Shown here in pieces: positions 106-9,908 of a stretch of 10,057 bases of DNA. Under the pieces are notes generated by a model. The model was not told the DNA's origin. It made no database searches and saw nothing but the letters and a program-made list of their open reading frames with translations. How positions within the stretch are numbered: the stretch's first letter is position 1; each line of letters starts with the position of its first letter. Made by a program: the position numbers and the translations under genes. Origin of the DNA: a virus (lineage: Duplodnaviria > Heunggongvirae > Uroviricota > Caudoviricetes); IMG/VR virus record IMGVR_UViG_2734482778_000005, positions 1-10,057 of that record. The stretch is one strand, 5' to 3'.

Positions 106-599
106 TAAGCCCCCACGTAATTCCCTGACAGATACCACTCATCACCCGATACAGCGCGCTTGCTGCTTTTCCGTAAACACTGCTCACGACGCGCCAGAAA
201 ATTGTTTCGTTCTGGCTGGGAGTGGCTTTCACGGAATGCCGCCATCCACACCGTTGCAGCACGACGGTATAAGCCCCTGGACTCCAGTTCTTCCGCCTGG
301 CGGGTCAGGCACAAAATCACCCGGGGATCGTTAGTGCCGACATAGAAATTGCGCACAGGTCTGGTTTCACGAACTGGTTGTGGTTCCGGCTCCTGCGCTC
401 TCTCAGTCAGGCGTGGGAAATGTCTGCGTGTATCTCCTTCACAACGGTGAGCCACACGCCCACTCTGACGTAACTTGCTTGCTGACTGCAGAACGCGCTG
501 CCGTGAGTAACCTGCAAAAGCATCCGCAATGTCTCCGGAAGTACACCCCGGATGGGCTTCAATGAATTTCTGAACGTCATTTAACAGACTCATGATCAC
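105..599 (-). CDS. Hypothetical prophage protein, 164 aa, with a C-terminal PerC-like motif (LESRGLYRRAATVW); possibly YfdN-like
   Basis: Complete ORF on the minus strand. Its ATG at 599-597 overlaps the stop of the O-like gene (ATGA). The C-terminal half carries a motif recalled from the PerC/Pch regulator family. The length equals what I recall for K-12 YfdN, but that is not verified. Confidence 0.65.
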   Translation of the reverse strand: MIMSLLNDVQKFIEAHPGCTSGDIADAFAGYSRQRVLQSASKLRQSGRVAHRCEGDTRRHFPRLTERAQEPEPQPVRETRPVRNFYVGTNDPRVILCLTRQAEELESRGLYRRAATVWMAAFRESHSQPERNNFLARREQCLRKSSKRAVSGDEWYLSGNYVGA

Positions 600-1588
600 C
601 CCCTGAATCCTGCCGGGATCTGGCTGTAGTCCACGTTGTCGTAACTGGCTTTGAAGTACGGGTCTTCACGTTTTTCTGTGTGCGTGCTGACGGACGGCGA
701 TAAGCGCAGGGAAAGCTCATCCCATTTTTCCCGCAACTTCGACGGGCTGAGCACGTTACGGCACCAGAACGGATCGCGGCTGACGCGGCTGTACATCTCG
801 CAGATTTGTTTGTGAGTACGACCATCCTGCACACACATCAGGCGAATTTCGTTTGCCCATGCTGTCCAGTTCGGTTCTTTGGGACGAACCACCTCGCCGT
901 CACATTCGGCGGCCTGCTCGTACAGGGCGATGATTTTTTTCCAGAGCCACTGTGCGCAGGTCAAATCATCCTGCGTTCCCCACTGGCGCTTTTTAGGGCT
1001 GAATACAACCGCATCAGGATGGCGAGTTAAAAACTCCTGTTCAGCCGTTTGCGTGTCCGGTTGCGAAGCGTCCGGACGAGAAGAGGTTTTATTCTCTGTA
1101 GTAATCTCTGTTGTATTCTCTGTAAGATCATTGGGCCATTTTGACCCGATGACAGCGTGTCGTTTTGAACCAATGGATCGTGTCATTTTGCGCCCATCCA
1201 TCAGGTCACTTTGACCCGATGGAGAAGTGCATTTTGACCCGATGGATTCGTTCACTTTGACCTCTTCTAAAAGCTCACTTTCATAGTTGATCGTGTAGAA
1301 GTTGGTCATGTCACGCTTCGATTTATTGAGTTGCTCGCGACGCAAAACCCCAAGTGATTTCAGGCTTGCAAATGTGCGTTTCAGAGTGGACTCTGACCAG
1401 AACGGAAACTGCTCCAGCCACTGTTCTGTCGTGTTATAAACCCAGCGAATTCCGCCATGCTCAGTGCCTGAATTCGTTTCATTCAGCCAGTAATGAAGCT
1501 GCTGCAACACAATTGCCTCATTCAGACCAATACGGCATGCAAGATCACGATTTATCACAATGGGCTGGGATGTCATTAACAGGCTCAT
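596..1588 (-). CDS. Lambdoid replication initiator (O-like), 330 aa, with the replication origin embedded in its coding sequence
   Basis: ATG at 1588 is preceded by GAGGT with a 5-nt spacer. The direct repeats at 1139-1264 fall in the middle of the ORF and encode the repeated SIGSK peptide, as iterons do in lambda O. Downstream gene is coupled by an ATGA overlap. Confidence 0.85.
   Translation of the reverse strand: MSLLMTSQPIVINRDLACRIGLNEAIVLQQLHYWLNETNSGTEHGGIRWVYNTTEQWLEQFPFWSESTLKRTFASLKSLGVLRREQLNKSKRDMTNFYTINYESELLEEVKVNESIGSKCTSPSGQSDLMDGRKMTRSIGSKRHAVIGSKWPNDLTENTTEITTENKTSSRPDASQPDTQTAEQEFLTRHPDAVVFSPKKRQWGTQDDLTCAQWLWKKIIALYEQAAECDGEVVRPKEPNWTAWANEIRLMCVQDGRTHKQICEMYSRVSRDPFWCRNVLSPSKLREKWDELSLRLSPSVSTHTEKREDPYFKASYDNVDYSQIPAGFRG
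1081..1264. repeat. Putative phage origin: six direct iterons at about 23-bp spacing (core TTTTGACCCGATGGA, starting near 1139, 1163, 1186, 1209, 1232, 1255) next to an AT-rich tract (1081-1138) carrying short TTCTCTGT repeats
   Basis: Direct reading of the sequence: four near-identical and two degenerate copies of the TTTTGACC core, phased at 23-24 bp, abutting an AT-rich stretch. This is the classic iteron plus AT-rich lambdoid ori-within-O layout. Confidence 0.65.
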
Positions 1589-1757
1589 GACCGACCTCTA
1601 TTTCCCTGAATTTACGACGAAACTGTTCGAGCGGACTGAAGCATTCATGTTCATAGCCTTCACGGAGGTAGATAACCCGTTGTGTTTCCGGCTCCCAACG
1701 AATGACTCTGACGGGCACTCCGTAGTGATCTTTGAACCAGCGGTTAACTTGTCGCAA
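1545..1757 (-). CDS. Alternative small ORF (70 aa, TTG start); mutually exclusive with most of 1598-1936
   Basis: TTG start is preceded by AAGGAGA with a 7-nt spacer. The product ([40 protein letters not shown]...) has a globular-looking composition. It overlaps the O-like start by 44 nt and overlaps the 112-aa ORF in another frame. Confidence 0.3.
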
Positions 1758-1936
1758 AGGACTGTCTCCTTCTGCCGGTTGAAATCACCCACAGCCCACT
1801 CTGCAAAGCTGTGGGTTACAATTTCCCTGTCACCTGGTACATTCACTGCATAGCAATACTCCACCTTCGCTTTTCCACCCGGTACAGGAAGCGCAATCAG
1901 TTGCGAGCGACGGTAGTGTGTTGTTAAACTGTTCAT
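1598..1936 (-). CDS. Hypothetical protein, 112 aa, between the CII-like and O-like genes
   Basis: ATG at 1936 overlaps the stop of the upstream CII-like gene (ATGA). GGAGA lies 9 nt upstream. The TAG stop at 1600-1598 sits 9 nt before the O-like ATG, inside its ribosome-binding site, which is typical operon spacing. The C-terminal half is S/T/N-rich and less protein-like. Confidence 0.45.
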
Positions 1937-2517
1937 GCGTTAGTTTCTCCACAACCAGAAGCAATCGACGCCACGACGCCCGGAGCTGCACACTCGCGGG
2001 CGTTACTCTTTTCCGGCGCACAAAAAACACGAAATAACAGTGTTAAATGCTCCTGCCACTTCGCCATTACTTGGTAGCTGTTCTCTTCGATTTGCTCACG
2101 CTCAGCCTGGTCAATAACTCCATCAGCAGTTGCCTTGCGTAAGTACTGGGAATGCTTGCCAATCCATTCTATTGACTCCATCAGCCGCTGATTAATGTCA
2201 CCATTGTCAATGTCATCAATGACCACCAGCGGCACAAACACCCCATTACTACGACGGGCTATTGCATCTGTTACATGCCTGGTACCACTGGCATCCTGTA
2301 AAACCATGGCCCACTCAAGTGGAAAAATTTGATCCCCACCGCTACGCAGTCTGTTATGCAATTGATCTTTTGCTGGGGTGATATCATCAGATTTATACAA
2401 ACCAAGAATTTCTGCTGCTTCCTCATAGCCATGAGGTAAATCAGCAATCGTTCTTCGTATTGCTGCCACCAGCCATGCTGGTTGTTTATCAACTTTCCAT
2501 TCAGGTTCTTTACCCAC
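1933..2517 (-). CDS. Phage CII-like regulatory protein (CP76/YdaT-type), 194 aa, GTG start
   Basis: GTG at 2517-2515 is preceded by GAGGA with a 7-nt spacer. It sits immediately downstream of the Cro-like gene (27-nt gap), in the cII position. The central region ([10 protein letters not shown]...[25 protein letters not shown]) resembles CII/CP76-type regulators from memory. Confidence 0.7.
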
Positions 2518-2773: not shown

Positions 2774-2840
2774 AATGTAGGATATCCAACATGCCAATGT
2801 CAAGAATCCTACATGGGCATGTGGTAGGATTGCCTACATG
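2774..2840. promoter_or_regulatory. OR-like operator region: three 18-bp imperfect palindromes (2775-2792, 2797-2814, 2822-2839) overlapping a leftward PR-like promoter (-35 TTGACA at 2803-2798, -10 TACATT at 2779-2774, minus strand) and the cI start
   Basis: Direct reading. The sites are ATGTAGGATATCCAACAT, ATGTCAAGAATCCTACAT and TGGTAGGATTGCCTACAT, sharing the half-site ATGT(A/T)GGAT. The promoter is TTGACA, 18-nt spacer, TACATT, aimed at the cro-like gene. Confidence 0.6.
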
Positions 2841-3491
2841 ATGAACATGAGTGATCGTATTCGCCAAAGGCGAAAAGAACTGAACCTGACACAACAAGCA
2901 CTGGCTGATTTGACTGGTGTGAACCGTGTCACGGTTACTGGATGGGAAAAGGACGACTACCAACCAAATGGAGCCAACCTTCAAGCCCTAGCCAACGCAC
3001 TTAAATGCGATCCTCTGTGGCTTGTTAGCGGAAAAGGCTCGCCTGAACCAAAGATAAATCTAAAACCTGAAATATTCGCAGTTAAAAAAGTCCCCCTCAT
3101 CTCGTGGGTTCAGGCGGGTTCATGGACAATGACGGAGCCTGGTGTCAGGAAAGAAGATGCTGAAGAGTGGGTTTATACTACCGCCCTTGTATCAGAAATG
3201 GCATTTGCACTACGGGTCCGTGGTGATTCAATGACCAATCCCCTCGGCTCACCATCGATACCAGAAGGTTCTATCGTTATCGTAGAGCCAGATATTATTG
3301 ATACAGAGTGTATTAACGGAAAAATCGTTGTTGCCCATATCAATGGTGGGCAAGAAGCGACACTCAAAAAATTTGTTGAGGACTGGCCGAACAGGTATCT
3401 CGTCCCACTAAATCCTAACTATAAAACTATTGAATGCGGTGAGAACTGCAGAATAGTTGGTCTTGTCAAACAAGTAATAATGGATTTTTGA
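2838..3491 (+). CDS. cI: cI-like prophage repressor: N-terminal XRE-type HTH plus C-terminal S24 (LexA-like) autopeptidase domain, 217 aa
   Basis: HTH segment LTQQALADLTGVNRVTVTGWE. A candidate Ala-Gly cleavage site (VQAGSW). The catalytic Ser sits in the GDSM context and a Lys in ATLKKF. The start overlaps the third operator; alternative ATGs lie at 2841 and 2847. Confidence 0.9.
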   Translation: MMNMSDRIRQRRKELNLTQQALADLTGVNRVTVTGWEKDDYQPNGANLQALANALKCDPLWLVSGKGSPEPKINLKPEIFAVKKVPLISWVQAGSWTMTEPGVRKEDAEEWVYTTALVSEMAFALRVRGDSMTNPLGSPSIPEGSIVIVEPDIIDTECINGKIVVAHINGGQEATLKKFVEDWPNRYLVPLNPNYKTIECGENCRIVGLVKQVIMDF

Positions 3492-8834: not shown

Positions 8835-8866
8835 TGAATAAACCCATCCAAAGATGGGTTTATTCA
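8835..8866. terminator. Perfect 14-bp inverted repeat (TGAATAAACCCATC, loop CAAA, GATGGGTTTATTCA) between convergent genes; candidate bidirectional terminator
   Basis: Read directly. The right arm contains the stop codon of the minus-strand gene. A T-rich run follows on the minus-strand transcript, so it probably works better for the leftward cassette. Confidence 0.5.
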
Positions 8867-9321
8867 TAATGTTGAAGAGCAGCGAGTATCAGTTTTTTAT
8901 GCCGTTTAACCATAGTTTTAGATATCTCAACTGCACATCGAACTTGTCTCATACAATGATCTGTAATGCGACCTTTTAGCACGTCACCATATTGGATGGC
9001 TATTTTCTCTTTAATAATTTCAAGATCGAAAGCAGCATGAGCCTCAATGCAATTAACAAATGAGTCCCATTTAAGAAAATCATGGTCCTCTCTATTAATT
9101 TCGACCTGACAAGCCATAAGATCATTGTTTCTCTTAATAAATTCATTTATATCTGAATTTATTAGAAGAACTAAAAGAGGTTCACAGCAAACAACCACCA
9201 TATATTTTACTTTAGGTGGGGTCGTAAAATCACAATGAAGATACAATACATCACCGGGTGATATACCTCTTTCACGACTAAAATTAGCCTTAAAATCAGG
9301 AGGGAAACAATCACCCAGCAT
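8860..9321 (-). CDS. Hypothetical protein, 153 aa, no family recognised; candidate toxin or effector partner of the upstream Panacea-domain gene
   Basis: ATG at 9321-9319 lies 5 nt after the TGA of the Panacea-domain gene. The ORF track extends to a TTG at 9330, which would give an ATGA-type overlap. AT-rich codon usage differs from the rest of the window. No known motif identified by eye. Confidence 0.65.
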   Translation of the reverse strand: MLGDCFPPDFKANFSRERGISPGDVLYLHCDFTTPPKVKYMVVVCCEPLLVLLINSDINEFIKRNNDLMACQVEINREDHDFLKWDSFVNCIEAHAAFDLEIIKEKIAIQYGDVLKGRITDHCMRQVRCAVEISKTMVKRHKKLILAALQHYE

Positions 9322-9326
9322 AAGTA

Positions 9327-9908
9327 TCAATATCCGTTCTTCAGATAATCCAGTATTAATTTGCTATTTTTTAGCTGTGCAACTATCGATTCCAAAGACA
9401 TCTCACCATTGTGATCTGCCTGTTCCCATGCCGCGTCATGGCTCATGGTTCTGATAGCTTCAAAGGACATGTTTCCAAGCATCGCGATAGACTTATCAAT
9501 ACACTCTAAATCTGAGTCACTAAAAAAGTCTTCATCAGCTTCACGGCTCGGCACAATCGTCATACCTGATACAGAAAATGCTTTTCGCACAGAATCGACA
9601 TCACAACCATTAGGAATGTAACGTCCATCTCCACGAGCAATTTTTATAATATCGTATGTGTTGCTTGCTACAGGCCCATCCTTCATAGCGTTATAGTGAT
9701 CGCCCGTTATGAGGCGTCCAAAACTTTCAAGGTGAAACCTGTCAGCATAATAAAGAATTTTTCCGACATGATAGATATCTGGGATCGGTGCTTTAGAGGC
9801 GACGTACAGAATGGCCTCTAAAGCCTTTTCTGAATCAAACCTTACATTTAGCATCAATACACCCTTCATCCAAACAACATCGTCAAGCTCTGGCAAATGC
9901 AACCGCAT
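9327..9908 (-). CDS. Panacea (DUF4065) domain protein, SocA/GepA-like, 193 aa (possibly 175 aa from an internal ATG at 9854)
   Basis: N-terminal region (EAILYVASKAP-IPDIYHVGKILYYADRFHLESFGRLITGDHYNAMKDGPV) matches the Panacea/COG3600 signature (KLxKLLYYA ... GPV). The C-terminal part (LSDSDLECIDKSIAMLGNMSFEAIRTMSHDAAWEQA) matches the second conserved block. No ribosome-binding site precedes the ATG at 9908; AAGGG precedes the ATG at 9854. Confidence 0.7.
   Translation of the reverse strand: MRLHLPELDDVVWMKGVLMLNVRFDSEKALEAILYVASKAPIPDIYHVGKILYYADRFHLESFGRLITGDHYNAMKDGPVASNTYDIIKIARGDGRYIPNGCDVDSVRKAFSVSGMTIVPSREADEDFFSDSDLECIDKSIAMLGNMSFEAIRTMSHDAAWEQADHNGEMSLESIVAQLKNSKLILDYLKNGY

Follow-up and report, generated by a model that had tools for sequence, protein, structure and literature searches.

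ymfM (sfiC) and a nested DUF4222 gene: a probable dual-coding cassette upstream of the replication gene in e14-type prophages

How many genes lie between the CII-like regulator gene ymfL and the O-like replication gene of an e14-type prophage? The question is raised by the 10,057 nucleotides (nt) of IMG/VR record IMGVR_UViG_2734482778_000005 (Caudoviricetes), the whole stretch analysed here and called the window below, where two overlapping open reading frames (ORFs) occupy this place. A first-pass annotation of the sequence had presented them as mutually exclusive, each with its own ribosome-binding site, and had left a choice between a genuine overlap, a frameshifted gene and one spurious frame. 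Our answer is that the locus is very probably a dual-coding cassette in the PR operon of a lambdoid prophage of the e14/mEp460 type: a homologue of ymfM (ORF112, 112 amino acids, aa) and a gene of the DUF4222 family (ORF70, 70 aa) are both under selection, and the overlapped tail of the former would couple translation of the O gene.

The geometry, given in Table 1 as far as coordinates go, was correctly described at the outset. On the minus strand, the ATG of ORF112 (1936-1934) overlaps the TGA of ymfL (1935-1933) as ATGA (1933-1936), with GGAGA 9 nt 5' of this ATG. ORF112 stops at a TAG (1600-1598) that makes up the first three letters of TAGAGG, which serves the O-like gene as ribosome-binding site; 6 nt (TCGGTC) separate TAGAGG from the O-like ATG at 1588, leaving 9 nt between TAG and ATG. 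ORF70, in the -1 frame relative to ORF112, begins with TTG 7 nt downstream of AAGGAGA (1771-1765) and ends 44 nt inside the O-like gene. The idea of mutual exclusion does not survive: the frames overlap, but nothing bars translation of both, and the comparative data indicate that both are translated.

The nature of ORF70 is readily recognized. It matches the Pfam family DUF4222 (PF13973) with E=1.5e-18 and 66.5 bits, for a cut-off of 27, over residues 2-53 of 70 and profile positions 3-52 of 53, bearing out the early impression that this frame is the more protein-like. It also belongs with phrog_1343 (E=5e-34), and the Prokaryotic Genome Annotation Pipeline (PGAP) annotates WP_001250270.1 at the identical locus. 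The sole characterised member of the family is RgdR (ECs1581), which itself matches PF13973 at 82 bits and shares 41% identity with ORF70 over 49 aa (BLASTP E=3e-11). The RGD tripeptide of RgdR (residues 20-22) lies N-terminal to the aligned block and is absent from ORF70, a matter relevant to RgdR-like activity, not to domain membership.

All diverged loci with a long YmfM carry a well-conserved DUF4222 protein in the -1 frame, and across genera its conservation is that of a protein, with a ratio of nonsynonymous to synonymous divergence (pN/pS) of 0.45 and synonymous sites that are saturated (pS 0.4-1.0 between lineages). Among close relatives, polymorphisms in the overlap fall 10, 5 and 0 times on DUF4222 codon positions 3, 1 and 2, the opposite of what the YmfM frame predicts. 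The aligned start is always ATG, GTG or TTG (19 loci), and a GGAGG-like element stands 5-14 nt 5' of it, within ymfM codons (19 lineages). Modelled with AlphaFold2 from a 22-sequence alignment, ORF70 is a small five-strand beta-barrel, with a predicted local distance difference test score (pLDDT) of about 90 over residues 10-50. A search with this fold returned only generic small-barrel matches of the SH3/KOW/Tudor/KorB-C kind at E>=0.01, because of which no function can be read from it. Judged by its conservation, ORF70 is a genuine, independently initiated protein.

In nearly all the DUF4222 loci examined the gene lies directly upstream of a replication-module gene (O-like, HTH_36/Phg_2220_C, P4-like primase or Ash), the start of which it usually overlaps, phiNP being an exception; this placement suggests a functional link to replication control. 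Two natural knock-outs of DUF4222 were met, both with YmfM intact: one (L106, GCA_965644225.1, contig CBFFRJ010000004.1) where an in-frame stop replaces the conserved Trp at codon 7, the other in an E. coli prophage from IMG/VR (L088), where codon 3 changes from CAA to TAA, a change synonymous in YmfM.

ORF112 is no less clearly identified. It matches phrog_1170 over its full length (residues 1-112, E=1e-69) and is about 96% identical over 112 aa to b1148 of E. coli MG1655, annotated as 'cell division inhibitor YmfM' (SfiC). Its site is also that of ymfM: within the PR operon it follows ymfL, to which its start is coupled, and precedes the replication gene. Homologues of 112-117 aa are found down to about 45% identity, with residues 1-55 conserved. 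For this N-terminal part (YmfM-N), pN/pS between lineages is 0.47, and 13 of the 15 polymorphic sites in 48 close haplotypes are at ymfM codon position 3. The family is small, with 56 representatives in an exhaustive search of 1.8 billion representative proteins, and many of its members are free-standing proteins of 59-68 aa that end just past the domain. It is retained where DUF4222 has been deleted, in an Atlantibacter metagenome-assembled genome (L010) and in Entomohabitans (L011). Residues 1-55 of YmfM are best regarded as a genuine conserved domain. Pfam and NCBIfam hold no model for YmfM, a sequence search of the PDB with the YmfM or the DUF4222 family gave no usable match, and the structure model of YmfM (pLDDT 49; 50-65 over residues 1-55, below 40 over residues 67-112) was too weak for a fold search. 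Residues 19-50, the beta-hairpin part, have multi-stretch phmmer matches to giant repeat proteins (P0212, P0229, P0234), among them a 1654-aa protein with Listeria-Bacteroides repeats and 13 matched stretches (P0212); this is probably a generic, uninformative beta-repeat similarity.

There remains the second half of YmfM, overprinted on DUF4222. Its fate was followed in 18 DUF4222 lineages, mutually saturated at synonymous sites, part of them found via YmfM and part purely via DUF4222 (tblastn of phage records); a scan of viral contigs gave only near-identical relatives, and the diverged loci came from look-ups of the encoding contigs and from tblastn. As an amino-acid sequence the tail is free: pN/pS in the YmfM frame of the overlap is 1.30, the synonymous rate of DUF4222 there is not lowered (0.64 vs 0.42 in YmfM-N), and the tail is Ser/Thr-rich and modelled as disordered. 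As a reading frame it is anything but free. In 17 of the 18 lineages the +1 frame across DUF4222 runs for 49 codons or more without a stop, where synonymous randomisation leaves it open in 1-21% of cases, depending on the lineage, and where only 15% of fifty-codon +1 windows in neighbouring genes lack a stop; the binomial probability of such an outcome is 1e-13. With lineages ascertained only through DUF4222 the frame is still open in 9 of 11 (p=1.3e-6).

The way in which stops are avoided can be traced to individual codons. A codon of the YmfM frame takes its first two letters from positions 2 and 3 of a DUF4222 codon and its last from position 1 of the codon that follows, and can therefore be a stop only if NTA or NTG precedes A, or if NTA precedes G. 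Val and Leu codons preceding A never end with a purine (0/49), against 17/41 at harmless sites of the same genes (Fisher 1.6e-7), and 46/69 do so at equivalent sites of control genes; T/C turnover is seen at the risk sites, so these do mutate. Nor is openness intrinsic to a DUF4222 coding sequence, because DUF4222 genes outside the YmfM context have several +1 stops, as is the case for RgdR, which belongs to a P4-like element, for phiNP, where the gene follows rha, and for EKP1 of Elizabethkingia. The two modules, furthermore, recombine independently: two loci (L094, L105) share YmfM-N with very different DUF4222 sequences, a second subtype of YmfM-N is found in mEp390 and L102 and a third in Flotzy, and every recombinant has kept the frame that reads through. 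This frame is continuous with the N-terminal domain, with no intervening stop in any diverged lineage that bears DUF4222. The overlapped tail of YmfM appears, then, to be selected for its openness and the position of its stop, not for its amino-acid sequence, a clean natural case of an overprinted extension of this kind, and such selection speaks for a role in translation (coupling) more than for one as a protein.

The end of the frame tells a similar story. In 12 loci the YmfM-frame stop lies exactly 9 nt 5' of the replication-gene ATG, as TAGAGG or TAAAGG; in five others (L094, L096, L097, L100, L101) the gap between stop and ATG is -8 to -11 nt or 3-4 nt. In the group formed by L096, L097, L100 and L101, the stop is 8-11 nt past the replication-gene ATG, and it is the DUF4222 stop that forms an ATGA overlap with that start. 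The YmfM stop is built from rare DUF4222 codons, ATA (Ile), as in the window, or TTA (Leu). ATA makes up 6.6% of the Ile codons in neighbouring genes; the joint probability is about 4e-9 over eight independent lineages. The stop, to all appearances, is placed and not random.

The first-pass annotation had proposed comparing both frames among homologues, and the comparison yields independent selection signatures in each. Homologues with a single intact frame, which it had named as counter-evidence, turned up only as derived cases: deletions of DUF4222 (L010, L011), nonsense codons within it (L088, L106), and rare close variants with YmfM frameshifts. Among the diverged lineages, none combines an intact DUF4222 with a YmfM frame that stops early. 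Of the three options it offered, genuine overlap is supported and frameshift falls; neither ORF70 nor the N-terminal half of ORF112 is spurious, and the C-terminal half of ORF112 is selected for openness only, not for its amino acids.

The functioning of this overprinted and probably translationally coupled cassette may be pictured as follows. Translation of ymfM would be coupled at its start to that of ymfL through the ATGA overlap; ribosomes would run past the domain of about 55 aa through about 55 further codons, in the +1 frame of the DUF4222 gene, and would terminate at the TAG that opens the TAGAGG of O, with 9 nt left to the ATG of that gene. The small beta-barrel protein DUF4222 would be translated independently from the internal AAGGAGA-N7-TTG, ending just inside O. 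The tail would thus bring ribosomes that translate ymfL and ymfM to the start of O, coupling the replication gene by termination and reinitiation, and ribosomes crossing the ribosome-binding site of DUF4222 may tune its initiation. Combining the literature with the present layout, SOS-induced cleavage of the cI-like repressor would derepress the operon and yield YmfM and the DUF4222 protein, and one or the other, or both, would block formation of the FtsZ ring, which is the SfiC phenotype. If this is true, we have a conserved module with an unconstrained overprinted tail that exists only to deliver ribosomes to a phage replication gene.

To be sure, several points weigh against this picture. 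Our literature search found direct expression evidence for neither frame: a multi-omics study of the SOS response reports ymfM at the transcript level only (PMC11002266), and no proteomic evidence for it was met. Some of the sampled lineages were reached by way of YmfM itself. In Providencia (L115) and in Yersinia YeP2 (L117) the +1 frame is kept open though the YmfM-N-like gene ends earlier. The A of the ATA or TTA codon could be favoured as part of the ribosome-binding site. The case for coupling is one of geometry only; a search for a hairpin masking the O ribosome-binding site found none beyond shuffled expectation (z=-0.01), and ribosomes from DUF4222 also reach the O start, which leaves the need for a second incoming frame unexplained. 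In the two phages just cited, Providencia phage PSTCR8lys (L115) and Yersinia phage YeP2 (L117), the YmfM-N-like gene is separate, with 69 and 53 aa respectively, and ends at or before the DUF4222 start; the stop-free +1 frame of the former would encode a hydrophobic, transmembrane-like peptide (MKMLIISIAFIWISGVFAFASYVM...).

Some of these points are what would be expected if DUF4222 were the sole gene in the overlap, as PGAP has it, ORF112 being open by accident and the 112-aa YmfM either not made or ending as a short N-terminal peptide. A tail with a pN/pS of 1.3 and predicted disorder, a gene left out by PGAP and having no Pfam or NCBIfam model, and an open +1 frame in L115 and L117 with no upstream ORF feeding it would all fit this account, which we nevertheless find improbable: 17 open frames in 18 saturated lineages, where some 15% were expected, cannot be put down to chance, risk-site codons are strictly pyrimidine-ending (0/49 purine) with no such bias in control genes, and the tail is physically continuous with the conserved YmfM-N through a junction free of stops in DUF4222-bearing diverged lineages. 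The mirror image, in which ymfM alone is real, as in EcoCyc and the GenBank phage records, and the 70-aa frame is spurious, has on its side that most deposited phage records and MG1655 annotate the 112-aa ORF alone. It is scarcely credible in the face of the PF13973 match, the protein-like conservation, the confident beta-barrel model, the homology to RgdR, and substitutions that follow the DUF4222 frame across the overlap; a spurious ORF70 is refuted by the comparative data.

A more serious competitor accepts both genes and denies the coupling of O: the tail would be open because, as a C-terminal extension, it serves the YmfM protein, whether by acting as a disordered spacer rich in Ser and Thr, by marking the protein for degradation, or by providing an interaction region whose length is required. 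We hold this to be a possible, if doubtful, reading. Overprinted extensions are usually disordered, the composition (rich in Ser, Thr, Ala and Gly) and the length (about 50-57 aa) of the tail are alike in all lineages, and RNA structure gives no sign that coupling is needed. However, that composition is mostly set by the conserved DUF4222 codons, tail-less YmfM-N proteins are common and YmfM-N persists in L010 and L011 where DUF4222 is deleted, the stop follows the O start to the nucleotide and not a protein length, and in SfV, ST64B and Hafnia this frame simply continues into the gene that follows. Very unlikely, finally, is a single gene split by a frameshift, or a programmed -1 frameshift producing a fusion of YmfM-N to DUF4222. 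ORF70 does lie in the -1 frame of ORF112, and databases do contain such fusions, of 102-119 aa (P0031, P0052, P0059, P0065); these are rare (1-14 members vs 1295 for the standard form) and joined at differing points, the two modules recombine independently (L094, L105), and DUF4222 initiates at a conserved ribosome-binding site and start of its own, with a stop in its frame one codon 5' of that start in L094, L105, L108 and L109. A slippery heptamer X_XXY_YYZ in the zero frame, crossed by an open -1 frame, is absent from 21 of 23 loci, and none is conserved. Taken with the separate start site, the stops before it and the rarity and heterogeneity of the fusions, this rules out a frameshift, mutational or programmed. 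The reading we prefer is still that of two selected frames, with a tail that would couple O.

The consequences reach the annotation of E. coli K-12 itself. Of the two ORFs, the one annotated in GenBank phage records and in MG1655 is the 112-aa ymfM alone; PGAP genomes, including that of K-12 NCM3722 and that of the genome identical to the window, annotate only DUF4222 and leave about 175 nt after ymfL blank. Within K-12, MG1655 (L119, 1203822-1204160) has ymfM and no DUF4222, and NCM3722 (L005) has DUF4222 (WP_001250269.1, 59 aa) and no ymfM. Treated as alternatives, both annotations appear to be right: the 35-year-old sfiC locus shares the 3' half of ymfM with a second conserved gene that is missing from the reference annotation.

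This matters for what is known of SfiC. Induction of 'ymfM' with arabinose prevents Z rings from forming, an effect that depends on none of SulA, SlmA and MinC, and deletion of ymfM lowers SOS filamentation in a sulA background; the construct was the whole ymfM ORF in pBAD24, and ymfM was treated as a single-frame gene (Ansari et al., bioRxiv 10.1101/2020.11.19.390815). As it happens, the K-12 fragment in pBAD24-ymfM includes, along with the internal AAGGAGA-TTG, 53 of the 59 codons of DUF4222, that is, the entire predicted fold. Every published construct, be it the shotgun clone, pBAD24-ymfM or the ymfM deletion, carries both frames, and no frame-specific control is reported; assignment of SfiC to the YmfM frame over DUF4222 is for these reasons unproven, and the genetic evidence for the function of YmfM is ambiguous between two frames. 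We would give a minor share of credence to the proposal that the phenotype is due, wholly or in part, to the nested RgdR-family protein, or that it needs both products. The DUF4222 papers found in our literature search do not concern this locus, and the ymfM papers found do not discuss the overlap. The elements are familiar: ymfM/sfiC and the DUF4222/RgdR family are each known already, as are overlapping genes and translational coupling as kinds of arrangement; what appears to be undescribed is that both annotations are right, that the overlap is conserved under selection for openness only, and that the frame assignment of SfiC is thereby undermined.

A related annotation problem is seen in SfV orf37 (L107), ST64B sb41 (L108) and the 'Ash family protein' of Hafnia yong2 (L114), where intact unannotated DUF4222 genes lie under the annotated N-termini. 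For about 60-115 aa, until the Phage_ASH domain is reached (at residue 117 in SfV and 68 in Hafnia), these ORFs follow the +1 frame of DUF4222; they are either real N-terminally extended isoforms or the product of mis-called starts, and the Ash-family 'transcriptional regulator' annotations probably need revision.

Comparison with systems already described helps to delimit what is particular here. In e14 the same ymfM gene (b1148, sfiC) lies in the same slot between ymfL and an O-like gene, with the same internal AAGGAGA-TTG and a nested DUF4222; the window differs by a DUF4222 protein of 70 aa and a 44-nt overlap with a different O-type gene, where e14 has 59 aa and 11 nt. Overprinted or nested phage genes are well known, as in lambda Rz/Rz1 or the overlapping genes of phiX174. 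There too one DNA stretch is read in two frames, one older and structured, the other derived and disordered; at the present locus, by contrast, the derived frame is a C-terminal extension of the upstream gene, without a start of its own, and its amino acids are apparently unconstrained, with only openness and stop position selected. In trpE-trpD, trpB-trpA and overlaps of the ATGA type, known cases of translational coupling, a stop falls in or close to the ribosome-binding site or start of the following gene. The ATGA of ymfL-ymfM, the ymfM stop in the O ribosome-binding site, and the ATGA made by the DUF4222 stop and the O start in loci of the L096 type all resemble these; the difference is that coupling is here proposed from geometry only, and that two incoming frames meet at one downstream start, which is unusual.

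Encoded by the cryptic prophage CP-933C/Sp7 of enterohaemorrhagic E. coli O157:H7, RgdR regulates type III secretion and motility (Flockhart et al. 2012, PMC3378721): it activates LEE1 and the type III secretion system, represses motility and binds DNA non-specifically, and its RGD motif is reported to be functionally important (PMC3378721). It has the same Pfam domain as ORF70, is small and prophage-encoded, and its gene is directly upstream of, and overlaps, a replication gene (a P4-like primase). It differs by its 99 aa, its N- and C-terminal extensions, the RGD motif, the P4-like context and a +1 frame with stops, hence not overprinted.

The window as a whole belongs to a lambdoid prophage of the e14/mEp460 type and includes an immunity and replication region, in which the early-right operon is read from the minus strand (Table 1). 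A prophage of E. coli O177:H21 is 100% identical to it over the tested segment, and phage mEp460_4F5 is 99.3% identical. No Rfam family was found anywhere in the window, and a consensus promoter scan found no internal promoter for DUF4222.

Table 1. Positions of the features of the early-right operon and its surroundings in the window.
Feature	Position	Strand	Remarks
cI-like S24 repressor gene	2838-3491	+	divergent from PR operon
PR-like sigma-70 promoter of early-right operon	2774..2803	-	TTGACA-18-TACATT, 10/12 match; upstream of cro
cro	2742->2545	-	
YmfL / CII-like regulator gene	1933..2517	-	NCBIfam phage_reg_YmfL, 181 bits; Pfam Phage_CP76; phrog_101
ORF112, ymfM (sfiC) homologue, 112 aa, ATG start	1598..1936	-	phrog_1170; ~96% identity to MG1655 b1148
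YmfM N-terminal domain, residues 1-55	1772..1936	-	pN/pS 0.47; stand-alone family members
YmfM C-terminal extension	1598..1771	-	overprinted on DUF4222 from 1757, +1 frame; Ser/Thr-rich, predicted disordered
Internal Shine-Dalgarno AAGGAGA for DUF4222	1765..1771	-	inside ymfM codons
ORF70, DUF4222 (RgdR-family) gene, 70 aa, TTG start	1545..1757	-	PF13973; phrog_1343
TAGAGG, ymfM stop fused to O-gene Shine-Dalgarno	1595..1600	-	sequence
O-like replication initiator gene	596..1588	-	phrog_391, E=8e-102; PGAP coding sequence with identical start
PerC-like gene	599-105	-	downstream of O-like gene

Some further observations concern the remainder of the window. Within the O-like gene, on the minus strand, five direct repeats with a period of 23-24 nt and the core CATTTTGACCCGATG occupy positions 1129-1244; they are iteron-like, are placed inside the O-like gene as the iterons of the lambda origin are, and are probably the phage replication origin. 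A further pair of 15-nt repeats is found at 1086-1124. Downstream of the left end of the window, rusA is annotated as frameshifted in the otherwise identical O177:H21 prophage (L004), a copy that may be partly decayed. At the prophage edge, a SocA/Panacea-domain antitoxin gene (9327-9908, minus strand, Pfam E=5e-20) overlaps by 4 nt a 156-aa ORF (8860-9330) that has no Pfam match, and the pair (8860-9908) looks like a toxin-antitoxin system of the PanA type.

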